Shown piece after piece: positions 686 through 41,354 of a stretch of 64,000 nucleotides of DNA. The position numbers and the translations under genes were made by a program. Position 1 is the first letter of the stretch; each line of letters opens with the position of its first letter. Location: contig CAVWWD010000006.1 of NCBI GenBank assembly GCA_963758635.1, forward strand, positions 256,001 to 320,000, read 5' to 3'. This stretch comes from an uncultured Candidatus Rokubacteria bacterium. Lineage in GTDB: Bacteria; Methylomirabilota; Methylomirabilia; Rokubacteriales; CSP1-6. The notes beneath the pieces were generated by a model. That model had not been told where the DNA came from. It searched no databases and saw nothing but the letters and a program-made list of their open reading frames with translations.

Positions 686-1149
686 TCAGTAGCGCCCGCC
701 GAGCTTCGCGGTGGTCCCAGCTCGCGATCTTCTCCGGCGTCACCTTGAGGACCACGCGCTTGGGCGCGCTCGCCAGCGCCCCCGACCCCGGCGGGGGCGC
801 GACGCCGATCCCGGCGCGCTTGCCCGCGCTCTCCCGGATGACCGTCTCCACCTGCGCCGGGTCCTCGATGATCTCGCAGCGCCCGCGGATCATCACGCCG
901 CGGAACTCCGCGTACTCGCCGCCCGTCTCGATCATCACCGCGACCTTCGGGTTCGCGGCGGGCGTTCACGACCTTCTGGGCCTTCGCGTAGGAGGTCATG
1001 TAGATGGCGCCGTCGCGGGCGACGAAGTTCATCGCCACCACGTGGGGGAAGCCGTCCTCGTCCACGGTGGCCAGCGCGGCCTTGGGCGCGTCGCGCAAGA
1101 AGGCAGATTGTTCCTCGGGGGTCAGTCGGATGTCGGGGCGCGGGCTCAT
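686..1149 (-). CDS. Pyridoxamine 5'-phosphate oxidase-like (PPOX, flavin/F420-binding split barrel) protein, frameshifted
   Basis: LATVDEDGFPHVVAM...KVVNARR joined to IETGGEYAEFRGVMIRG...KIASWDH across frames. Confidence 0.8.
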
Positions 1150-1297
1150 GACGATCTCCGTTTCGTCGTTGAATCGCGTCAGCGCCGAGAGCATACACCT
1201 CCGGCGCGGAGATCCCGTCAGCTCCGTCGCATCCGCGGGGAAGAGACCGTGAGCCGGGGGCGGTCGGGCGCCCTCGGCTCACGTCCCCGTTGACCGC

Positions 1298-4127
1298 TCA
1301 CATCAACGGCGTCAGCTGCCGGATGTTCAGTTGCGCGGCGATGAAGGTCAGGACGTCCACGTGCGTGCGGGCACTGTGGGCTTCATCCGACCGCTCGGCG
1401 AGGAAGACCGGCGCGTCTGGGCCATAGTGCTCCTGCAGCTCCGCGGCCATGCCGTAGGTCTGGTAGGGCTCGACACGATCGTCCAGCCGCCCGGTGGCGA
1501 GCAGCAAAGGTTTGAGTAGCATCTGTCTACTGCGAAGCTCTGCCACGTGGTGCGCGGGGGACCAAGCCTGGAGCACCTCCATGTCCTGGGGAGACTGCTG
1601 GAGGTCTCCCGCCGCGTTGTGGCGGAACCCGAAGTCGTCCCACGCGGATCGGCCGAAGACCCCGTTCTCCAGGAACCCGGGAGGATCGCTCACCGGCATC
1701 TCGGCCACGAAGAGATCGATGGCCTGCGGCGCCTCGACCATAGCGGCCAGGGTGTGCATCCCACCGTACGACCGTCCCGAGGCGACGATGGGCGTATCGG
1801 GGAACTCTTGCTTCAACCGCTCCGCCGCGCCCGCGATGTCCTCGAGCGTCGCGCGACGGTGGAGCCTGATGTCCTGGTCCTGCCACCGGAGGCCGAACTC
1901 ACCGCCGCCACGGACGTTCGCGATGGCCACCGCGCCCCCGAGTTCGAGGACCAGTTGGAAGATCGGTTTCTCGTCCCACGTCGGCAGCGTGGGGGCACCG
2001 ATCGCGCCGTAGTAGTAGAGGTACACGAACGCCGGTTTCGTGCCACGGCGGGTCATCAGCTGGATCGGCACCTGCGTCCCGTCTGCGCTCCGGAACTCAT
2101 GCCGCTCATACTTCACGTCGTTGCCCCCCCGGCAGAGTAGCGCTTCGCGACCAAGTGGGGCGATCGCGAATTGGTCGCTCAAGTCGACGGTGAGCGTCTG
2201 CCTCGGCGTCGCGATACCTTCGTAGGTGAAATAGGCCCTGCCGGAATCCTCATTGCCCGTGAACTCCGACAGCGTGCCGTGGTCGTCCGGGGCCCCAGCG
2301 TCCGAGGGCCTCCACGTGTGGACGTCTCCCGTTCTCCAGGTTAATGAGCCGCACCTCGTTCTCCAGGGGCGGCGTGAGGTACTGAAGGGCCAGAAAGGAC
2401 CCGACCCGTTGCGCCCTGATCAGCACGTTGTGGGGATCCGGGGCGACAACACGAGTGGGCTCCGTCCTCGGATCATCGAGATCGACGGCGATCACGGCGA
2501 AGTTGTTGGCGGTCTGCCCGTCGCAGGTGCTCGCCCTGAATAGGGCCCGGTTCTCGTGGACCGTGATGAAGTGCCCGAGCACTCCCTCGCTGGACGAGAA
2601 CAGGCGTGTCACCGTCCCGCCGTCTCGGCGGTCCACGAGATACGCGGCGAGCGGGATCTCGGCCGATCCCTGGACTCGATAGGCGATGAACCTGTTCCGA
2701 TCGATCTCGTAGATGCCGTAGTCGGCGTAGTTCGGCCATTCAGGGTTCGTGAACTCCACCGGATCGTCCGGCGTCCGCCCTGCGGCCTGGGAGATGGAAC
2801 GGTACCGGATCTGCTTGCCTGGCGGGTACGCCGGCTCCCCTCCGAGCGTCGGGACAGCCGAGTAGTAGAATCCGTTCGAGTCCCGACCCCAGTACACGGC
2901 TCCCATCCGCAGCTGCACCTCGTTGCCCTCGATCCGCTCCCTCCTGCCGAGGTCCATGACGCTCCAGAAGGACACGTCACCGTCCTGACGCTTCCGGGCA
3001 TATGCGACTTTCCTGGTGTCGGGGCTCAGCCGGAAGTCGACGACTGGCCCGGCCGCGGCACTGACCAGCTCCTGCCGCGGCCCCGACGCGACCTGCCACC
3101 ATAGGGCGTCATTCTCGATGAAGAGCTCTCCGGCCGGGCAGTGGAAGCGCCTCGGAGGATTCTTCGGGATCAGCTCCATCGCGCGCAGCTCTATGTCTCT
3201 CCTCAAGCCGCCCTCGGGGAGCGCCCGCGGCTGCCTCCTCAAACCGTCGATGGGGTTGGGCAACGCCGCTCCGGCGCCGAGCCCCGCCTGCGGCACGCCG
3301 TTGAGCCACTCGGTGCGTCGTGCCCGGTCCAGCGCGGCCCGGAAGAGCGGGCACTCGTCTCTGAGGATCCCGAAGAGCTTCGTGGCGAGATCCCTCCCCG
3401 CGACAGTGTCACTGGGATAGTGGAGACCGGCTCGCTCACGGTTGACGGCGACGTTCTCAGCGCGGTCCATGTGGTCGTCGCGCCCACTGCGCAGATACTT
3501 CAGGATCGCGCCCATGAGGTACATCTGGGTCGAGTGGCCGCTCGGATAGGCGGGGTGGCCGGGGAGCGGGATCGGAGGGGCCAGATCGGGATCGAGGAGC
3601 CAGGGCCGGACCCGGTTGAAGCGCTCCTTGAAGTACATCACCGCGGAGCCGGCCAGGTGCAGGCCGGCGACCACGAGCTCGGTCGTGAGGGGATGCGAGG
3701 TCGGCGAGAAGTGCAACTGGTCGAACCAGTATCCGACCATGACGGAGCCTTCCTGCTCACGGCTGATCTTTCCGAAGTGGTCCCGTCTCGAGTCCTTCAT
3801 GCGACGCAGCGTGTCGAGCTCGCTGTCGATGAGGTCGGGCATGAACGGACGGACCAGGTTGTCCCGGTTGTGGGTCCAGGTTGCGGAGGCGTACAGCTCC
3901 TGCTTGTACAGCTCGGCACGAAAGTCGGGATCCCAGAATACCCACGGGATCTCGGTCGCTCGACGTTCCGGGAGGACGTGCATCCCCGCCATCCTCAGCG
4001 CGAAGGCGGTCGCCGTGGCGGTGGCGGTTGCCATGGCGGTCGCCGTGGCCGTGGCGGTGGCGGTGGCGGTAGCCGTCGCGGTGGCGGTGGCCGTGGCGGT
4101 GGCGGTCGCAGTAGCTGTGGCTGTCAT
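1298..4127 (-). CDS. Fusion protein: N-terminal (Thr-Ala)n repeat + PAP2/acid phosphatase-haloperoxidase domain + prolyl oligopeptidase (S9A); one frameshift near 2320
   Basis: GGAGGAG RBS before ATG 4127; PAP2 motifs KERFNRVRP, YPSGH, RERAGLHYPSD; propeller-like region (FRLSPDTRKVAY, WGRDSNGFYYS); S9 motifs ANVRGGGEFG, GRSYGG, DDRV and a C-terminal His; the reading frame of ORF 1298..2182 is open upstream to about 2320. Confidence 0.8.
4005..4124 (-). repeat. Coding dipeptide repeat (TA)15-MA-(TA)4
   Basis: 6-bp period ACN-GCN; all four Thr and all four Ala codons are used. Confidence 0.95.
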
Positions 4128-4167
4128 GGTCTCCTCCGTCTTCTGGCCAGGATGTTCAGGAGCAGGC

Positions 4168-4851
4168 TCACGGCCGCTCCCACTCGGCCCGTGCTTCTCC
4201 CAGGGCGGTCATGAACTTCGGGCAATCCCTTTCAGGATTTCGTAGCATCTGCACGGCAAGCCCGCAACCGGCCGTCGTGTCGCTCGAGTAGTTGAGGCCC
4301 GCCCGCTCGCGATTCAGGGCGACCTCCTGGGCCCGGGCGCGAATTTTCTGCTCGGCGTCCCGCGGCGCCAGCTCCGTCAGCACCAGGGCCATGAGGTGCA
4401 TCTGCGTCGAGTGACCCCCGGGGTAGGACGGAAGCCCGGGCACGGGGATCGGCGGGGACAGATCGGGGGCGAGGATCGAGGGCCGCACGCGATTGAACCG
4501 CGCCTTGAAGTACGTGGCGACGGAGCCGGCCAGATAGATGCACGCGTGGAGCAGCTCGTTGGTTCGCGGACGCTCGCTTGGCGTGAACTTCAGCAGCTCG
4601 TACCAGTACCCGATCATGGTCGCCGCGTATTGCTCCTGGGAGATCGCGCCCACGTGCTCGTCCCGCACCTTCCTGAGGGAGAGGAGATCCTCGACCTCGC
4701 CGCGCGTGCTGTCGTTCCAGGCATCCACCATGCCGTCGCGCCGCTTCGGGTCCTTCCAGGTCGGAGTCGCGAAGAACTCCGCCTTGTACAGCTCCGCCCG
4801 CAAATCGAGGTTCCAGTTCTTTCGGAGAAACTCCGTCTCGACCTTGGCCAT
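4168..4851 (-). CDS. PAP2-family protein, paralog of the adjacent domain, with catalytic His replaced by Asn
   Basis: KARFNRVRP, YPGGH, RERAGLNYSSD; AAGGAGG RBS; shares W..D.RAELYK with the neighbouring gene. Confidence 0.85.
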   Translation of the reverse strand: MAKVETEFLRKNWNLDLRAELYKAEFFATPTWKDPKRRDGMVDAWNDSTRGEVEDLLSLRKVRDEHVGAISQEQYAATMIGYWYELLKFTPSERPRTNELLHACIYLAGSVATYFKARFNRVRPSILAPDLSPPIPVPGLPSYPGGHSTQMHLMALVLTELAPRDAEQKIRARAQEVALNRERAGLNYSSDTTAGCGLAVQMLRNPERDCPKFMTALGEARAEWERP

Positions 4852-4888
4852 GGTGTCCTCCTTGCGCGTGGCTCGCTGCTGACGCCGG

Positions 4889-7647
4889 CTACTCGGGAAG
4901 TCCGGCTTGCCGGAGAGCGTCGATGTAGGCGCCGAGCTCCGGCTCCCGCAGCGGATACCATTGCCGGAAGCCGGAGAGTGTGAAGGCCCGATCGATCTGC
5001 AAGAACTCGCGCGCCATCTCCCGCGCCTCCGCGAGGCGGCCGAGATGGACGAGCGTCGCGGCCAGGAAGCGGAGATTCACCGACCACCGCGGGTTCTCGC
5101 GCCGCGACTGGAGGCCGAAGGCGAGCGCCTCGTCGTATTTCCCGCACAGCATGGCCGCAAAACCCGAGACGCCGGTGAAGTAGAAGCCGAGCGGGTCGAA
5201 CGGGCTCAGGCGGAGGGCGTAGGCCTCGCGATCGAGGGCCGCCTTGGCCTCGCCGACGTAGCAGAGGGTGATGCCGCTCAGGCCCCAGGCCATCTGGGAG
5301 TTCGGGTTGAGCGCGAGGGACCGCTCGAAGAGCTGCAGCGCGCGGGGGCACTCCTTGTCGATGAACGAGGCGGCGTGCGCGCTGACGGCGAGCGCCCACG
5401 CGTCGTCGGGATCGCGGTCCAGCGCCGCCTGAGCCATCCGGCCGACCTCGGGCCTCTCGGTGGCGGCTTCGGCGGCGGTCACCAGCCCTGGCCGAACTTC
5501 AACAGATACCACCACGCGCGCCAGGCGTACGCGGCGGCGAAGTTCGGGTCGAGGGCAATGGCCTTCGCGAGGAGCTCGCCCGCCTGGAGGAACTCGTCGG
5601 GGGACAGGCGGTAGAGCAGCGTGAAGGCACGCAGCACGCAGTCGTAGGCGTCGAAGCTGTCGGGATGCTTCTGGAGGGCCCGCTGCGCCTCGGTGATGCG
5701 CAGTGTGCTCTCGAGGGTGCCGACGATCCGCGAGGTGATCCGATCCTGGAACTCGAAGACGTTGGCCAGCGCGCCGTCGTAGTGGTCGGCCCAGATCGTG
5801 TTGCCGGCGCGAGCGTCGATCAGGTCGGCGGTGACCCGCAGCTGCGACCCCGCCTTGCGCACCGTGCCCGTCACGACGTAGCCCACGTTGAGCTCGCGCG
5901 CGATCTGTCGGAGGTCCGCGATCTTCGACCGATAAACGAGCGTCGACGTGCGCGAGATGACGAAGAGCCATCGGATGCGCGAGAGGGCCCCGATGATGTC
6001 CTCGGTGATGCCGTCGCCGAAGTACTCCTGGCCGGGGTCCCCGCTCAGGTCGCGGAAGGGCAGCACGGCGATCGAGGGCCGGTGAGAAACGGGCGAGGTG
6101 CTGAGCACGAGGACCTGATTCGGGCGCGGTGGTCCCTGGACATCCGAGACGTTCGCGCTCGAGCCGCCCGAGAGGCCCGGCCGCCCCGTCACGAAGGGCA
6201 CCGCCGAGGCGGTGACGAGCATGGTGCCGGGGGCGATGCCGGAGGCGAGACGATTCACCTCGGCGACGGCCTCCGCCTGATCGGCCGGGTGGAGCGGCTC
6301 TCCCGCTGGGCCCGGCCCCGTCCGGCACTCGGTGACGTGGATGGCGGCCCGCGTGGACATGGCGATGGGGCCCGCCGTCTCGGCGGGTCCGACGGCCCGC
6401 TGGATGGAGAGCGCAGCGTGGGCCGCCCGGCTCGCCCCGTCCGCCACGTCGGCGGGAAAGCGGCCACCACGCGAGTGTCCGTGATCTCGGCGGGCACGCC
6501 GCCGAACGCCCGGACCTTGTCCAGGGCGACGTTCAGCGCGTGGCTGACCTGGGCCGCGCGAGGCGGACATCGGCGGCGACTCGATCTCCGCCCAGAGGAA
6601 GGCGACGGGCCGACGGACGGCGGCCGTGTCGACGTGCCGGCTTCCCCGGGCCCCGGGCGCGGGCGCCGGATCCGGTCTCAGTCCGTACTTCTCGAGCCGG
6701 TAGCGGAACGTGTTGCGAGGAATGCCGAGGAGCGCGGCCGCCCGGGACAGGTTTCCCGCCGCCGCCTCGAGCGCCCCCGTGAGCCGCGCGCGTTCGAAGT
6801 CACCGACGCTCTCGCGCAACGAGCGATCGGCGTCACGCGGCACGATGACGTCTCTCGCCGGCGCCGGCGCGTGGCCCCGGAGGTCGAGGTCCGCCCGGCT
6901 GATCGACGGACCCTCGACGAGCATCGCGACGCGCTCCATGAGATTTGCCAGCTCGCGCACGTTCCCCGGCCAGGCATGGGCTTCGAGCGCGGCCTTCGCA
7001 TCGGGCGCGAGTCGCTTCGGCGCGAGCCCGTACTCGGCGCACAGCTTGCTGAGGAAATGCTCGGCGAGCAGGGTGATGTCGCTGGGACGCTCGCGAAGCG
7101 GCGGCAGCACGACGGGCATGGTCGACAGGCGGTGATAGAGATCCTCGCGGAAGCGGCGCTCCCGAGTCGCCGCACCGAGCTCCTCGCTCGTCGCAGCCAG
7201 GATCCACACGTCCAGCGGCTCGGCCCGTGTGCTCCCAAGGCGCCGCACCGTCCGGTCCTCCAGCGCCGTCAACAGCTTCGCCTGCAGCGAGACCGGCATC
7301 GCCGCGATCTCGTCGAGGAAGAGAGTCCCGCCATTGGCACTCTGAAAGAGCCCTGGCTTGCCCTGGCGGGCGTCGGTGAATGCCCCTCGCTCGAACCCGA
7401 AGAGCTCCGCCTCGAGCAGCGTATCCGGAATGGCGGCGCAGTTGATCGGGACGAACGGCTTGCTTCCGCGAACGCTGGCGCGGTGGATGACGCGGGCGAG
7501 CAAGCCCTTACCGGTACCGGTCTCGCCGAGGATGAGAATCGGAGGGAGGCGTCCCGAGGACCGCTGATGCTGGAGCAGCCTGCCGATCTGGGCTCGGATG
7601 GCCGAGATTCCCGCGCTCTCTCCGACCAGATCGGCCAGTGGCGGCAT
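4889..7647 (-). CDS. Sigma54-dependent activator (AAA+ and Fis-type HTH) fused to a degenerate cyclase-like segment, TolB-like domain and TPRs; frameshifts near 6520 and 5470
   Basis: GETGTGKG, GAFTDA, LFLDEI, FREDLYHRL, WPGNVREL, GNLSRAAALLGIPRNTFRYRL; then PSIAVLPFRDLSGDPGQEYFGDGITEDII and TPR-like AIALDPNFAAAY / SLALNPNSQMAW. Confidence 0.85.
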
Positions 7648-7708
7648 CCATTGGCCATGGTAGTCCCCCGATATGAGAGGGGCAAGGTCGCTGGGAACGA
7701 GCCCATGC

Positions 7709-8374
7709 TCAAGCGCGCAGGGCGAGCAGTTCATAGACTTCGACCGGGTTGATCCGGCCGCGGACCGGGAACCATCCTCGCCGGCGCGCCTCCACCCGAT
7801 CGCTCAGCAAGGCCTGCATCTGGCCGCTCATGAGGATGGACGTGCCGAGGTACCGGTTGAGATCCTCGAGGCGTGACGCGACGTTGACGGTGTCGCCCAC
7901 CACGCCGTACTTCCACTTTCGCGGCGATCCCACGGGGCCGGCGAAGACCTGGCCGCTGTGCATCGACACGCCGATCGGCTGCCTGACCCGCCGTTCCGCC
8001 TCCGACCACCCGTCGCGTCGACGAAGAGCGGCCTGCATCTCGACGGCGCTCACCGCGGCATGCCACGCATGGTCCGGATCGTGCGTCGGCACCCCGAACA
8101 CGGCCAGGATCCCGTCCCCCACGAAGTCCTGGACCACGCCATGGCTCGCCATGATCACGTCGATCATGACGGTGAGGTAATCGTTCAGAAAGGCGGCCAT
8201 GTGTCGTGGCGCCACGTCCTCGGCCATGGCGGTAAACCCGCGAAGGTCGGCGAAGAGGATCGATACCGGCACGACCTCGCCCTCGGTGGCGGCATCTCCC
8301 GAGCCGGTATGCTCCGCGGCCTGCATAAGATTGTCTCGATGGTCTGCATCGGTCTCGAGTCCGGGTGCCTTCAT
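7709..8374 (-). CDS. Stand-alone class III nucleotidyl (adenylate/guanylate) cyclase; start uncertain (8326-8419)
   Basis: ILFADLRGFT, FVGDGILAVFG, GDTVNVASRLE. Confidence 0.9.
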   Translation of the reverse strand: MKAPGLETDADHRDNLMQAAEHTGSGDAATEGEVVPVSILFADLRGFTAMAEDVAPRHMAAFLNDYLTVMIDVIMASHGVVQDFVGDGILAVFGVPTHDPDHAWHAAVSAVEMQAALRRRDGWSEAERRVRQPIGVSMHSGQVFAGPVGSPRKWKYGVVGDTVNVASRLEDLNRYLGTSILMSGQMQALLSDRVEARRRGWFPVRGRINPVEVYELLALRA

Positions 8375-8434
8375 CGCCCTCTCCCCTTGGCGCCCCGCTT
8401 CGCCGCTTCTGAAATCCATGTCGCCCGTCGTTGA

Positions 8435-8451
8435 TGCAAGCGCATCGCCAG
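8435..8451 (-). promoter_or_regulatory. Putative sigma54 -24/-12 promoter
   Basis: Minus strand CTGGCGATGCGCTTGCA gives TGGC-N7-TTGCA with exact GG-N10-GC spacing, directly upstream of the cyclase gene in an operon encoding a sigma54 activator. Confidence 0.6.
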
Positions 8452-8909
8452 GGAGGAACGCGCTGTATTCCGCTGGGTTGCGGAGCATGCTGCCGAAAGT
8501 TCGCCAGGCGAAGCTGTCGAGTTCCCGGCGATCCCCGACAGGTCCGTAGCCCGTGCTGCACCGTGACGAGCAGGACGCGCCTGGGCGGGCGGCCACGTGG
8601 GGACGGCGTGCCATCCCAGCGGCCCTTTGGGACCCATGGACGGAGGCCGGCCGACTTTTGCTTCGGTGGCGCTGGTTTCGAGGACGGTCGTTCCCTTGAC
8701 CTTGCGCGCACGCTCGATGTAGCGTCTGGCGATGGCGAGCGCGAGACGTTCAACGCGCGTTGCGCCCGTCACGGGCCGCCAGCCTCCAGGATCCGCGCGT
8801 GTCGCTTACTCCCCGCCCCCTTCGCGCGCGCGTGCGCCTCCCCCTCCTGCTCCTCGCCCTCGTCCTGGCCACAGCGGGCCCCGCCGGCGCCGGAAGCGTC
8901 GCGGCCCGC

Positions 8910-9314
8910 ACATGTAGTTGACGCCGGGCATGCGCTGCTCGCCTGTGTGCTCGTGCTCGCCGGCTCGGGTTGCGCGCAGAAAGGCGACTGGATCGCGGGC
9001 ACGCTCGTGACCGTGGACGTGAACGGAGTCTGGCGAGGAAGGCGGCCCCGACGACCTCCTCGGAGGGATGGTCCATGGAGGCGGAGCTGATCGCGGAGCA
9101 GCGGAGCAGCGGGGCCGAAGGTCACGGGGGTGCTCGTCCTTCGAGGCGAGCGGAACGACATCCAGGGCACCGTCCGCGGCGATGTCTTCTCCTTCGCCAG
9201 GCCCAACGGCCGCATAAGGCCGAGTTGACGGTGCGCAGGGGACGAGATGTCCGGCCAGGGCGTGAACATGCGACCGCGCGGAACATGACGTTGAACCTCA
9301 AGCGTCAGCCGTAG
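8910..9314 (+). CDS. Hypothetical lipoprotein, frameshifted or degraded; start unclear
   Basis: ALLACVLVLAGSGCAQKGDWIAGTLVTVDVNGVWRG, then KVTGVLVLRGERNDIQGTVRGDVFSF in another frame. Confidence 0.5.
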
Positions 9315-9423
9315 GCTTCGGGGAAGGCCTGGACGCACAGCACCTCGCGCTTGACCGGCGCGCGCCGGAGGATAGTCTCTGCCCACCTCAGGATCGTCTC
9401 GACCTCCCAGCGAGGGAGCACGC

Positions 9424-10995
9424 ATGAACTCCACCAGCCCGGACGTGACCATCCCGACGTCTCGATCACCGAGTACGTGCTCCGGCACGCGGCGCGGCTC
9501 CGCGACAAGCCCGCGCTGATCGACGGGCCCACCGGACGCACGCTGACCTACGGCCAGCTCGCGGGCGGCGTCCGCCGCGTGGCGGCGGGGCTCGCCGCGC
9601 GCGGGTTCAGGAAGGGCGACGTGTTCGCGATCTACAGCCCGAACCTGCCCGAGTACGGCGTGGTCATGCTCGCCGTCGCCTCGCTCGGCGGGGTCACCAC
9701 CACCGCCAACCCGCTCTACACCGCCGACGAGCTGGCCAAGCAGCTCTCGGACTGCCGCGCGCGCTTCCTCGTCACGGTGCCGGCGTTCCTCGACAAGGCC
9801 AGGGAGGCGGCGGCGCAAGAGCGGGGTGGAGGAGGTCTTCGTCTTCGGCGAGGCGGCGGGCGCGCGCCCGTTCAGCGAGCTGCTCCAGGCGGGCGACGCG
9901 CCGCCGGCGGTGCGCGATCGATCCGGCGAACGACATCGTCGTGCTCCCGTACTCGAGCGGGACCACGGGCTGCCCAAGGGCGTGATGCTCACCCACCGGA
10001 ACCTGGTGGCCAACCTCTGCCAGTGCGAGGGCATGGAGGACTTCGAGTCGCTTCGGCGAGCGCGACATCATGATCGCGGTGCTGCCGTTCTTCCACATCT
10101 ACGGCATGGTCGTGATCATGATGCTCGGCCTGGCCGGCGGCGGCACCATCGTGGTCATGCCGCGGTTCGACATGGCGGAGTTCCTCGGCCTCGTGCAGAA
10201 GCACAAGGCCACCGTCCTGCCGCTCGTGCCGCCCATCGTGCTCGGGCCTGGTGAAGCACCCCATGGTGGCGCAGTTCGACCTCTCGAGCGTGCGGCTCGT
10301 CTTCTCCGGCGCGGCGCCGCTCGGCGAGGACATGGCGCGCGAGCTCAGCGCGAAGCTCGGCTGCCCGGTCGTGCAGGGCTACGGCATGACCGAGGCGAGC
10401 CCGGTGACGCATCTGAGCCCCACGCGAACGCGCCGTTCCGGCCGGGCTCGGCCGGGCGCATCGTGCCCAACACCAGGTGAAGATCGTGGACATCGTGAGC
10501 GGCGCGGAGGTGCCCGGCGGGCCAGGAGGGCGAGCTCCTGATCCGCGGGCCCGCAGATCATGAAGGGCTACCTGGGGCGCCCGAGGACACCGCGGCCTGC
10601 ATCGACGGCGAGGGCTGGTACCACACCGGCGACGTGGGTACGTCGACCCCGACGGCTACTTCTTCATCGTCGACCGCACCAAGGAGCTCATCAAGTACAA
10701 GGGCCTGCAGGTGGCGCCCGCCGAGCTCGAGGCCCTGCTCCTCACGCATCCCGCGGTGCTCGACGCCGCCGTGGTGCGCAAGGCGGACGATGAGGCGGGC
10801 GAGGTGCCCAAGGCCTACGTGGTGCTGAAGCCCGACGACGCCTCCCGCGCCACCGGCGGCGACGCCATCATGGGCTGGGTGGCCCAGCGCGTGGCTCCGC
10901 ACAAGCGCATCCGCCACCTCGAGTTCATCGACCAGATCCCGAAGTCGGCGTCGGGCAAGATCCTGCGCCGCGTGCTGATCGACCGCGACCGCTGA
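9424..10995 (+). CDS. AMP-dependent acyl-CoA ligase (4-coumarate-CoA ligase-like), several frameshifts
   Basis: [52 protein letters not shown]. Confidence 0.9.
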
Positions 10996-11901: not shown

Positions 11902-13215
11902 CTAGTCGGCCGCCGCCGCCACGCCCGCGGTCACCCGGGCCGGGAGGCGCAGCGTGAAGGTGCTCCCGCGGCCGGGCGCGCTCTCGACGGTGATGTCGCC
12001 GCCCATCATGCGGCAGAAGCTGGCGGCTGATCGCGAGGCCGAGCCCGGTGCCGCCGAACCTGCGGCGTGGTGGACGCCTCGGCCTGGGAGAACGCCTGGA
12101 AGAGGCGCGCCATCTGCTCCGGAGTCATCCCGATGCCGGTGTCCGACACCGGACGACGATCGAGTCGCCGTCCGCGCCCGCGACCCGGGCGCCGGCGAGG
12201 GTGACCCGCCCGCGCTCGGTGAACTTGACGGCGTTGCTGGCGAGGTTGAGCAGCGCCTGACGGATGCGCGTGGGGTCGCCGTGCATCGAGCCGAGGTCCG
12301 GGCGCGCACTCGATCGAGAGCTCGTTGCCGTTCTTCTCGGCGAGCGGCGCGCACCGTGCTCGCCACGTCCGCGACGAGGGCGCCGACCGCGAACGACTCG
12401 AGGTAGAGCTCCATCCGGCCCGCCTCGATCTTGGACAGGTCGAGGATGTCGTTGATGAGCGCGAGCAGGTGGTGGGCCGCGCGCGTGATCCGCTCCAGCG
12501 GGCTCGACGCTCTCCGCGGCCCCGACGCGCGGCGTCCTCGTGCAGCATGTCGCGTGACGCCGATGATGGCGTTCATCGGCGTGCGCAGCTCGTGGCTCAT
12601 GTTCGCGAGGAACTGGGACTTGTGCCGGCTCGCCTGCTCGAGCTCGTGGAACTGGGTGGCGTTCTCCACCGCGATCGCCGCCTGGGCGGCGAAGGTCTGG
12701 AGGAGGTGGATCTGCCGCTCCGAGAACGGCCGCGGCGCCGCCCGCGCGACCCCGATGGCGCCGATGCCACGGTCGCTCCGCACCATCGGCACGAAGAGCC
12801 CGGCCCGGAACCCGAGCGCGCGCGCGAACCGCCGGGTCAGGTCGGTCACGTTCGGGTCGGTCTCCACGTCGGGGAAGTGCAAGACGCGCTTCTCGAGGAT
12901 CACGCGGCCGGGCAGGTTCGACGCGACGAGGGGGAGCGGGTAGGCGGCGTTCGCCGCCGCCACCGTGGCGGGATCGACGCCGGGGACCTCGGCGAAGTTC
13001 GACGCGGCCAGGCGCACCTGGCCCCCCTCGGCCAGGAACACGTTCGCGAAGAGGCCGTCGCAGAGGCGGATCGCGTGGCGCATGATCGCCTCGAGCACCG
13101 GCCCCGCGTCCCCGCGCGAGCTGGCGATCAGGCGGAGGATCTCCAGCGTGGTCGCCTGCTCGTCCCGCGCCTGGCGGAGCGGAGACGGCTCGCCGGTGCG
13201 CCCCCGCCGCGTCAC
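11902..13215 (-). CDS. GAF-domain sensor histidine kinase, frameshifted
   Basis: GAF ([22 protein letters not shown]), H-box [31 protein letters not shown]. Confidence 0.9.
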
Positions 13216-14702
13216 CGGCGCGGCGCCTCGCCGGCCGGAGCGGGCGCGATGCTCTGCTCGTAGTCGAAGAGCGTCGTGGAGTTGTAGCGCTGCTTCACCT
13301 GCAGGAGCTTCCCGAACACGTCGCCCCAGTACTGCCGGCGATAGTCGGTGAGAGTCCGCCGCGGATAGTTCTGGTAGACGGAGCCGTTCCAGTACGGCTG
13401 CATCAGGGCCACGAAGCCGTCGAGCCAGGCCACCGCCCGATCCCGCTCCTCGGGATGGAACCAGAAGGAGTCGATGAAGAGGTCCATGTCCACGTCGCGG
13501 TGGATGAACGCGTTGCCCGTCCGCGGATAGCGGTTGATCGTGCCCCCGTAGGGCTCGATGACGATCATGTCGTCCACGCTGGGACGCGTCATGTAGTAGG
13601 CGATGATGCGGCCCCAGTCCGCGGCGGTGAGCGGCCTGGCGATGTACCCGGCCTGCTTGTCCTCCATGGGCACCACGTCCACGGGCGGGATCCCGTCCGG
13701 ATACTCCAGCAGCTTCTGGTTGAGCGCGTAGTAGGAGCCGACCTCGTCGATCTGGAGCGGCTGCACGCCCGGGGTCTGCAGGAGCGGCTTCAGCTCGTTC
13801 AGGCCGTCGTTGCGCGCGCCCACGTACATGCCGCGCATGAGCAGCCACGGGCCGTCCTTCTGCTCGGTGACGATGGTCATGTACCCGAGCCGGTCGGAGG
13901 CGCCCGTGCGCATGAAGCCCTTCTGCATCGCGACCAGCGCGTCCGGCGCGTGATCGAGGCGCCAGCGCAGGCCGAACCCCCACACCGACGGCAGCTCGTG
14001 GAGCCGGTACACGACGTTGATGAGCACCCCGAGGTTGTTGCCGGTGCCGCCCCGGATCGCCCAGAAGAGGTCGGCGGCGTCCTTCTCGTCGGCGATGACC
14101 AGCCCGCGGTCCGGGGTCAGGACGCGCACGGACAGGACGTTGTCGCAGTTCATGCCGAAGGCGCGGGAGGTGAAGCCGTAGCCGCCCCCCTGCATGTAAC
14201 CGCCCACGTAGAAGTCCTCGCAGCCTCCGCCCGGCACGTGCAGGCCGTAGCCGTTGAGCTCGGCGTTGACCTTGCCGAAGTTGGCCCCCGCGCCCACGCG
14301 CGCGGTCAGGGACGCCTGGTCCACGATCACGTAGTCGTAGCTGCTCATGTCGAGCACGAGCCCTTCGTTGACGGAGAAGCCCGCGGTGCTGTGGCCGCCC
14401 GAGCGGCAGGCGATCTTCCAGCCGTACTGGCGGGCCCAGTCGAGGCACTGCCGGATGTCGTCCAGGACCTCGCAGTACGCGATGACCTTCGGAAAGGCCT
14501 GGAAGGCCGGATTCGACTCCTGGCGGTCCTTGTCGTAACCGGGCGAGGTGGGATAGACGAGGGTGCCGCGGAAGCTCCCCTCGAGCGTTTCCACCGCCTG
14601 GCGGTCGAGCCCGAGGCGGGTGAGGGCCGCGGCGTCAGCGCGCCCGAGGGCCTGGAGCCGGCTCTCCTTCGCCTGACGCCATCTGGACTTGAAAAAGGCC
14701 AT
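13212..14702 (-). CDS. FAD-binding oxidoreductase, berberine bridge enzyme-like
   Basis: RSGGHS covalent-FAD motif, [15 protein letters not shown]-terminal YQNY..YWG BBE motif. Confidence 0.9.
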
Positions 14703-14957
14703 GCTGGCTCCTCGTCGCGCGGCGCGGCGGCGGCTCCGCAGCGCCACGCCGTCGAAATCGGCGGCACACCGTGGCTTCGAGCAGGGCGAGAATCGCCTTC
14801 GACCGCGGGGCAAGTCAAGCGGGGGAACCCCCTCCTTGCGCTCCGCGGCGCGATGGCCGATGCTCGGCGCGCGGCACGATGCGCGCGCCGGACGTCAGTG
14901 GTCACGGCGCGACGCTCGGCGGCGCTCGATCCACCGCTCGTCGAAAAGGAGCCTTGC

Positions 14958-41300: not shown

Positions 41301-41354
41301 TGTCGCAAGCTGTGTCGCGAGCATGTCGCAAGTTGTGTCGCAAGCCTGTCACAG
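41301..41354. repeat. Five tandem TGTCGCAAG-like units at 11-12 bp spacing between fic and hsdR
   Basis: Units start at 41301, 41313, 41324, 41336 and 41347. Confidence 0.8.

Follow-up and report, generated by a model that had tools for sequence, protein, structure and literature searches.

Here we examine a Thr-Ala repeat leader and the operon to which it belongs, located in a window of 64,000 nucleotides from an uncultured Candidatus Rokubacteria bacterium (assembly GCA_963758635.1, contig CAVWWD010000006.1, positions 256,001 to 320,000 of the forward strand). All coordinates are positions within this 64-kb window; the genome is 6.17 Mb. The leader forms the N-terminus of a protein in which a PAP2 domain is fused to an S9 peptidase, and the genes upstream encode a repeat-less PAP2 paralog, a sensor and a cyclase. 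We will argue that the repeat is maintained as a peptide and that it belongs to a recurrent module, and we tentatively put forward a circuit in which the repeat would supply the ligand of the sensor. The features of the locus are as follows.

1298..2326, minus strand: S9A catalytic domain, with Ser in GRSYGG (1777), Asp in DDRV (1483) and His in EAHSA (1384)
2329..3035, minus strand: S9A beta-propeller (Peptidase_S9_N), frame shifted by a one-base insertion near 2328
3306..3935, minus strand: soluble PAP2 domain (acid phosphatase/haloperoxidase fold), residues 65-274, with KERFNRVRP, YPSGH and RERAGLHYPSD intact
3936..4004, minus strand: variable linker of 23 residues (42-64), without the conserved motifs of separate-peptidase loci
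4005..4127, minus strand: Thr-Ala leader, M-(TA)15-MA-(TA)4, likely serving the fused peptidase as a multi-copy substrate
4131..4137, minus strand: ribosome-binding site GGAGGAG; a GGAG-type site also precedes the start in 16 homologous loci
4168..4851, minus strand: PAP2 paralog without repeat, predicted to be a pseudo-enzyme (Asn for the catalytic His, PGGH for PSGH)
4889..7647, minus strand: sensor, consisting of sigma54 AAA+ activator, Fis helix-turn-helix (HTH), dead cyclase-like domain, TolB/FlgO-like domain and TPRs
7709..8374, minus strand: stand-alone class III cyclase domain, the first gene of the operon, with 64-72% identical copies in relatives
8435..8450, minus strand: sigma54-type -24/-12 promoter, TGG-N8-TTGCA, conserved in 6/7 homologous loci
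8491..8530, minus strand: two tandem imperfect palindromes (8530-8515 and 8506-8491), predicted activator sites

The Thr-Ala leader

Read from 4127 to 4005, the leader comprises 41 codons with 19 Thr-Ala pairs. A preliminary description of the locus had reported it as M-(TA)15-MA-(TA)4 behind GGAGGAG, encoded by all four Thr and all four Ala codons, and re-reading of the minus strand confirms this. The protein begins directly with the repeat and carries no signal-like segment, again as described. A start further downstream had been raised as an alternative, but none of the ATGs at 4034, 3992 and 3983 has, as judged by eye, a comparable ribosome-binding site. The leader is unique: no other dipeptide run of at least six units, and no tripeptide run of at least five, occurs in any frame of the whole genome.

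The assembly has many frameshifts, and it is therefore important to ask whether the leader could be the result of neutral slippage or of faulty assembly. A short-read contig from another public run (X2) spans 4016-4202 with a single difference, located upstream of the start, so that the leader is not an assembly artefact; the read-depth peak over it comes from unrelated GC-rich repeats. Of the close loci, 16 include the start of the fused gene, and every one of these has a leader, which is (TA)12-16 in 15 of them and TG in one (seven further close loci, which end before the leader or begin after it, are outside this count). Over the first 24 codons of 16 TA copies the amino acids are identical, and the third codon positions show an identity of 0.34 as compared to 0.31 by chance, for 120 pairs that include some close kin. 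The independent contig, the homologues, the saturated synonymous sites and the uniqueness of the run thus refute slippage and artefact, to which we assign a practically negligible probability, and the earlier claim of selection on the peptide stands.

The codon argument originally given for this claim has one gap. The leader is indeed kept at the protein level, but four-fold codon mixing alone cannot fix the strand, because the antisense frame, (AV)n, shares the wobble base. That frame is closed by a stop 10-45 codons ahead of the run in 15/15 homologues. On the comparative evidence, the Thr-Ala repeat is real and kept at the protein level. Codons ending in A or T account for 46/128 of the early and 66/256 of the later leader codons, relative to a reference of 1-3% per codon that derives from a genome reference filtered for high GC at third positions and is biased low. 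These codons may protect the array from slippage.

The fused enzyme

The PAP2 domain contains all three superfamily motifs, K-x6-RP, PSGH and R-x5-H-x3-D, and matches PF01569 with 27.7 bits (cut-off 27.2). The same motifs serve both acid phosphatases and vanadium haloperoxidases, and class A acid phosphatases, vanadium haloperoxidases and the present domain thus have them in common. The best solved relatives are the class A acid phosphatases PhoN/PhoC (PDB 7f17 and 2akc; E 4e-22 and 5e-16), with the vanadium haloperoxidase 1qi9 below them (E 3e-10), and VCPO_2nd is annotated on 10-17% of the nearest clusters. With the class A acid phosphatase model NF045654, the fusion gives no match and the paralog scores 19 bits against a cut-off of 430. 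In contrast to PhoN/PhoC, the fusion has no signal peptide, and it has a repeat leader, a fused peptidase and a pseudo-enzyme twin.

The peptidase part shows the S9A architecture, a beta-propeller and an alpha/beta hydrolase with a Ser-Asp-His triad, although the catalytic half is encoded in a different frame from the propeller in this assembly. One base is missing at 2328 in a contig of the public run X1 (single contig, depth 6) and the homologues of the fusion are uninterrupted single open reading frames of 923-961 residues, and the break is therefore most likely an error of the frameshift-rich assembly. The motif GRS[YF]GG is found in 12 listed homologues, which were selected on it, and D[DE]RV in 11/12 of these; the catalytic His is confirmed by alignment in L001 only, a locus from a Rokubacteria genome that is the nearest named one to the fusion. 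Comparison with hydrolytic prolyl oligopeptidases gives E values of 1e-44 to 1e-30, and with macrocyclase entries 1e-24 to 1e-17. By this measure the enzyme is nearer to ordinary prolyl oligopeptidases than to the macrocyclases OphP, PopB (which we take structure 5n4x to be) and PCY1. In the S1-pocket region the Asn after the nucleophile is replaced by Tyr/Phe and the Trp is displaced by one place, where we assume the usual roles of these residues in the pocket. Pro is absent from the Thr-Ala leader.

Neighbouring genes and promoter

The co-oriented upstream genes follow each other closely, with gaps of 40 nt to the paralog and 37 nt to the sensor. The paralog (4851-4168) is 48% identical to the leader-bearing PAP2 and, as had been pointed out before, has no leader. 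In the window, and in 18/19 repeat-less paralogs with a readable motif, the catalytic His is replaced by Asn, whereas all 15 repeat-bearing close PAP2 copies keep it. This loss is probably a single event on the tree.

The sensor gene is frameshifted in this assembly (once near 5481) and intact in homologues, with 902-919 residues. It matches PF00158 (E 4e-58) and HTH_8, has the AAA+ motifs GETGTGK, GAFTDA and LDEI, and its cyclase-like domain is without the metal-binding Asp residues. TIGR04510 is matched among the TolB-like+TPR sensors with E 3e-15, at 55.6 bits against a cut-off of 400. The sensor domain is weakly similar to that of CadC (E 1e-5 and 0.012 in two comparisons), which, according to an excerpt of PMC5936718, binds a small amine in a cavity.

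The promoter was named by what we take to be the sigma54 -24/-12 consensus. In the window and in 6/7 homologues the palindromes sit 79-81 and 54-56 bases upstream of it; in L085 the promoter with its palindromes is absent. A promoter pattern of this kind precedes only 1/42 non-sigma54 sensors. When scored with a matrix made from 11 homologous sites, the one in the window being excluded, the pair in the window ranks first in the genome (31.0 vs 21.9 bits), and among the top 30 matrix rows it alone has a promoter nearby. One should bear in mind that the sigma54 pattern is not enriched across the window (27 occurrences vs 51 expected), so that the promoter rests on its conservation. Neither a sigma70 promoter nor a terminator was found in 1100-9000. 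In domains and motifs, sensor and promoter are those of a sigma54 enhancer-binding protein with predicted DNA binding, and the conserved promoter together with the top-ranking palindrome pair points to an activator that likely regulates the operon to which it belongs and few other targets.

The stand-alone cyclase occupies the same place in 7/8 close loci with upstream DNA. In L001 it is replaced, behind the same promoter, by a gene for an AAA-only sigma54 domain without HTH (2253-3083); the first operon gene thus mirrors a domain of the sensor both there and in the window. Both metal Asp residues of the cyclase are retained, as is its Asn/Arg pair. At what we presume to be the base-specifying positions, the charges look swapped by eye, with Asp for Lys (QDFVGDG) and Lys for Asp (KYxxVGD), in homologues likewise. 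The cyclase may make another nucleotide or pair with the dead cyclase domain of the sensor.

A wider family of repeat leaders

We now turn to the wider family, for which we considered 160 loci, the best 80 of 308 in genomes and the best 80 of 472 in metagenomes. An N-terminal repeat is present on the PAP2 gene in 97/160 of these and in 0/39 outgroup loci, which mostly bear signal peptides. At E 0.001 the PAP2 profile finds 12,769 clusters, some of which are of another kind. The refuting condition named in the preliminary description, that homologues have no repeat, fails. The dipeptide units include TA, TG, SK, MT, TK, GY, GV, GA, GT, MS, EM, NQ, DQ and DY, and the longer ones NEG, NEA, AGN, VGN, TGN, SGN, SAN, TSN, MGD, NMG, ADG, DGT, DGM, SDS, DGAS and NGGI; further units are MG, NA, NL, NV, NT, NM and HPG. 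Within a unit, one position tends to be fixed while another varies. The PAP2 tree, with 33 units in 96 rows, shows 35 changes of unit and 4 of peptidase class, as counted before the second S8 group was recognised; the trees were calculated with FastTree, which gave long-branch warnings. The length of the unit follows the class of the peptidase:

S9 peptidase: units TA/TG, 13 loci
G1 peptidase: tripeptides, mostly X-small-N/D, 23 loci
HExxH M36-like enzyme: other dipeptides, 22 loci
S8, fused or adjacent: SK/MT, 6 loci
C1-like: tetrapeptides, 3 loci (weak Pfam match for one)
Second S8, divergently placed: D-small-X tripeptides, 17 loci

Of 23 repeat loci without the first-recognised peptidases, clustering of the neighbours revealed the second S8 in 17, and the other 6 have less than 2 kb of upstream DNA. 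A self-cleaving Asp-Gly clock, considered at one stage for the acidic units, was dropped since the S8 gene had been found in those loci. When only repeat loci with full flanks are counted (4 kb or more upstream, 1.5 kb or more downstream), a peptidase is present in 53/53 and a sensor in 52/53, as compared to 0/23 and 0/23 in outgroup loci selected in the same way; as the profiles were built from members of the counted loci, these figures show how often the parts recur and should not be read as independent trials. They do not include the 44 repeat loci with shorter flanks, of which 14 show no peptidase, and these are all cut close on one side. Since six interchangeable peptidase groups fill the slot, it is proteolysis as such that is kept.

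The sensor lies at most 1.8 kb upstream of the repeat gene in 70/76 repeat loci. The output is a cyclase in 49 cases, BTAD in 9 and sigma54 in 9, with 14 others having no assigned output. As judged by eye, both Asp residues are intact in most of 19 aligned sensor cyclase domains, together with the Asn/Arg pair, and some sensors carry SARP-type BTAD domains. On this comparative basis, a module consisting of a TolB-like+TPR sensor, a repeat-bearing PAP2 and a peptidase is recurrent and widespread. In loci with a separate peptidase the repeat is followed by a clade-specific motif (21/23, 21/25 and 22/24), which is absent from 17/17 S9 and 7/7 S8a leaders, as would be expected of a docking site for the separate enzyme; the patterns were written after inspection of the data. 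The peptidases have no signal-like segment, with a maximum 11-residue hydropathy of at most 1.6 vs 2.6-3.9 in six outgroup PAP2s.

In the phylum of the window, 20/251 genomes match, and the TA-S9 type occurs in 2 including that of the window, from which we conclude that the module is an accessory system. Crp-like neighbours occur in 9/37 cyclase-sensor loci vs 0/22 outgroup loci, but the profile had been made from 5 of these 9 and the association is thus weak. Among the conserved neighbours, clustering shows no exporter that stands out, no immunity gene, and no kinase or glycosyltransferase that stands out. No NCBIfam/PADLOC model describes the PAP2, G1, M36-like or C1-like members, and the PADLOC 2.0 models of known anti-phage systems give for 12 module proteins generic AAA, cyclase and subtilase matches only, with none for the PAP2 proteins.

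Some individual loci can be mentioned here. L087 (1081-12436) has two complete tandem modules, TA with S9 and a sigma54 sensor, followed by GT with an M36-like enzyme and a cyclase sensor. The PAP2 proteins of the NEG/NEA class have about 600 residues (L005 5756-7597, L009 5807-7591, L012, L014, L106, L107), of which some 300 extra ones, without Pfam match, precede the catalytic part. L111 (about 5115-5600) has the HPG unit and an S8-type linker motif in a frame that differs from that of its PAP2 domain. A further group, from the phylum of the window (L165, L167, L170-L175) has NA, NL, NV, NT, NM or DQ units, PAGH as motif 2 in 7/8, mostly an RFNS/RYNS-like motif after the repeat, and S8 matches in some members.

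Proposed circuit and alternatives

Because the array, the active PAP2, the peptidase and the sensor are kept, and a docking-like motif is found, the repeat can be inferred to be the substrate of the peptidase. The reading that we favour, tentatively and without full conviction, is that the peptidase would set free numerous short peptides, which PAP2 may have modified and which would activate the sensor in an autoinducing loop. In a first step the fused peptidase would cut the Thr-Ala repeat, which we consider probable. The message would then be the released peptides rather than the trimmed enzyme, these would be bound by the TolB-like+TPR domain, and the activator would bind the twin palindromes, giving a positive loop and an all-or-none switch. 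One precursor would thereby yield many peptides, and an active sensor more precursor; with a promoter predicted to be self-activating and a sensor domain weakly related to the small-ligand-binding one of CadC, autoinduction is the simplest circuit. PAP2, if it modifies the peptides, would act on their backbone or ends, since units such as GA and GV have no reactive side chain, and the role of the pseudo-enzyme paralog would be to buffer or tune the loop. As the predicted regulon is the operon itself, the cyclase, the PAP2 product or the peptide must be the source of any outward effect. A more specific form of the proposal, with lineage-specific second messengers of 2-4 residues that are chopped, marked on backbone or ends and read by TolB-like+TPR sensors, is possible but doubtful.

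A number of observations weigh against this circuit. The sensor and a PAP2 with intact active site persist without the repeat in L003, L007 and L032, so that the repeat is not essential to the pair; these loci also have no peptidase match, the flanks being short for two. At 45-55% PAP2 identity the likeness of the sensors is 0.52-0.54 for the same unit and 0.48-0.49 for different ones, and convergent GY and GV loci have sensors just 0.36-0.40 alike. The sensor of the TG locus L086 is 0.81 alike to the TA sensors, which are 0.84 alike among themselves. Over the whole domain, no co-variation of sensor and unit beyond kinship was found, and in the listed part of the sensor alignment no clear unit-linked column could be seen by eye. 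Furthermore, the peptidase class is clade-bound, and the match of unit and peptidase rests on about six independent events. All parts appear from their sequences to be cytoplasmic, with no conserved exporter, which leaves the trigger and the reach of the signal unexplained, and unmodified Thr-Ala peptides could hardly be distinguished from those of normal turnover.

The peptides could instead be waste, the repeat being a cap that the peptidase nibbles off, after which PAP2 binds the sensor or makes or destroys its small-molecule ligand; promelittin, yeast alpha-factor and other pro-peptides are known to lose X-Ala pairs one after another. This would account for sensor and PAP2 staying together without repeat or peptidase, for a sensor that does not track the unit, and for a length held at 12-16 units, as a timer would require. 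It leaves unexplained why the unit changes 35 times yet is exact within a lineage, and why the repeat-less paralog is the dead one (Asn in 18/19, probably one event), and we regard it as unlikely. Another option is a minimal factory resembling those of ribosomally synthesised and post-translationally modified peptides (RiPPs), in which the repeat, modified in cis by PAP2, is released or cyclised by the peptidase to give a product (a toxin, enzyme inhibitor or chelator) that acts outside the circuit, the cue of the sensor being unrelated. Precursor, enzyme and oligopeptidase are fused, the catalytic His is found in every repeat-bearing PAP2 with a readable motif, the spread is patchy (20/251 phylum genomes, TA-S9 in 2), and SARP-type BTAD domains occur on some sensors. 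On the other hand, there is no exporter or immunity gene among the conserved neighbours, the S9 enzyme is not nearer to the macrocyclases, and most sensors are nucleotide cyclases, presumably unusual for pathway-specific regulators, which makes this scenario unlikely. Of the borosin analogy in the preliminary description, the in-cis peptidase substrate fits best, as part of a module of sensor, precursor and peptidase; the likeness to borosins does not hold, as there is no methyltransferase and the S9 enzyme is nearer to hydrolytic prolyl oligopeptidases.

The remaining suggestions of that description assign the leader a structural or acceptor role. A self-assembling, amyloid-like beta-strand tag could cluster the enzymes or be recognised in polymer form by the sensor, with the peptidase dissolving it, and the alternating polar/non-polar units (TA, GY, GA, GV, NA, NL, NV, NM), which stand at the very N-terminus and in many cases precede a Gly-rich spacer, would suit it. 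While this is possible for TA itself, units of period 3 or 4, charged ones (SK, TK, DQ, EM, ADG) and the Pro-containing HPG have no common strand geometry, SK, DQ, EM, ADG and HPG would be poor amyloid formers, and a scan of plus-strand open reading frames with a nearby Met found no matching repeat on sensor or peptidase; for the family we judge such a tag quite unlikely. A Thr array serving as multi-site phospho- or glyco-acceptor, or as ice- or surface-binding face, is very improbable. It would be in keeping with 19 evenly spaced Thr beside a phosphotransferase-capable fold and with the Ser, Thr or Tyr of many units. As a family function, however, the acceptor role fails for units without hydroxyl (GA, GV, MG, NA, NL, NV and others), with no kinase or glycosyltransferase standing out nearby, and the ice or surface role for those without Thr (GA, GV, NQ, MG, AGN, VGN and others), in proteins that have no signal peptide.

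Relation to known systems

In RRNPP pairs (Rap-Phr, PlcR-PapR, NprR-NprX) a TPR sensor with an output domain is followed by a downstream-encoded peptide, with autoregulation. The module is alike in its TPR sensor with output domain, downstream peptide source and predicted autoregulation; as regards layout only, a TPR regulator with the peptide gene directly downstream, the two agree. The precursor of the module is, however, an array of di-, tri- or tetrapeptides fused to an enzyme, with a dedicated cytoplasmic peptidase and no signal sequence or conserved exporter, and is thus not an exported pro-peptide. The sensor is TolB-like+TPR with cyclase, BTAD or sigma54 output, and the hosts are mostly Proteobacteria and Rokubacteria.

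Borosins with OphP and plant BURP-domain cyclases also have the precursor fused to an enzyme, with repeated cores in BURP. They share with the module the fusion of a substrate to a catalytic domain, the presence of a prolyl-oligopeptidase-family enzyme at the locus and, for BURP, the repeats. The differences are that here the fused enzyme is PAP2, the repeat is N-terminal (the borosin core being C-terminal) with 2-4 residues per unit, the peptidase family is interchangeable and the sensor near-constant; the module proteins match no methyltransferase family and no BURP model. By analogy, the module would combine the working of an RRNPP circuit with that of an enzyme-fused RiPP precursor, yet it belongs to neither group.

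The combination of cyclase and TPR is shared with TIGR04510, the "putative peptide modification system cyclase", and with rhizobial CyaF-type proteins, for which we assume this architecture. The TIGR04510 precursor is NHLP-like, whereas that of the module is a short-unit array, and the score is far under the cut-off. CyaF2 is described as of unknown function in an excerpt of PMC5498481. With bacterial amyloid signalling systems (BASS/NLR), the module shares a short terminal low-complexity motif on a gene adjoining a repeat-domain sensor. Such signalling needs the same motif on sensor and effector, as stated in a passage of PMC7889193. In the scan mentioned above the module sensor shows no matching motif, its listed matches include no NACHT/NB-ARC and no STAND NTPase, and the units vary in period and charge. 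Compared to Thr-x-Thr ice-binding proteins, most units are without Thr and the proteins have no signal peptide. No description of the module was found in the open-access literature, supplements and subscription papers being outside that search; the available portion of PMC7159879 makes no mention of PAP2 or haloperoxidase, and that of PMC12419801 mentions PAP2 in other contexts. We thus regard the module as undescribed, with strong comparative support and a predicted mechanism.

TolB-like+TPR sensors of the cyclase, BTAD and sigma54 types are frequent in soil bacteria, and we found no known ligand for them. Here a candidate ligand is named by the sequence itself, in dozens of natural variants, and can be tested with synthetic peptides. 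The Rokubacteria-type version is the handiest for this purpose, having precursor, enzyme and peptidase in one polypeptide and a predicted promoter as ready reporter. Peptide second messengers, if true, would be the first ligands for a large orphan sensor family, and marking of the peptide by PAP2 would be a new type of chemistry for what is known as a phosphatase or haloperoxidase fold. The part of a system that carries the information can be a simple repeat of the sort that searches usually mask.

Further observations

Other TolB-like+TPR sensors of the same genome are located at C4 (about 4647-6549), C3 (521602-523941) and C5 (602684-604060), on contigs without a PAP2 match, and more distant PAP2-like domains at C1 25600-27228 and 36644-38073, with two within one open frame. 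In the window, 250-1194, 9351-10995 and 11902-14448 hold ordinary genes that are split over frames, as long-read insertion errors give (pyridoxamine-oxidase-like, acyl-CoA ligase-like and histidine-kinase-like, where the latter two names were given by eye). A gene resembling an FAD-linked oxidase on visual inspection, with an odd basic N-terminus, lies at 13212-14813 on the minus strand, and a short TGTCGCAAGC tandem repeat at 41301-41350.

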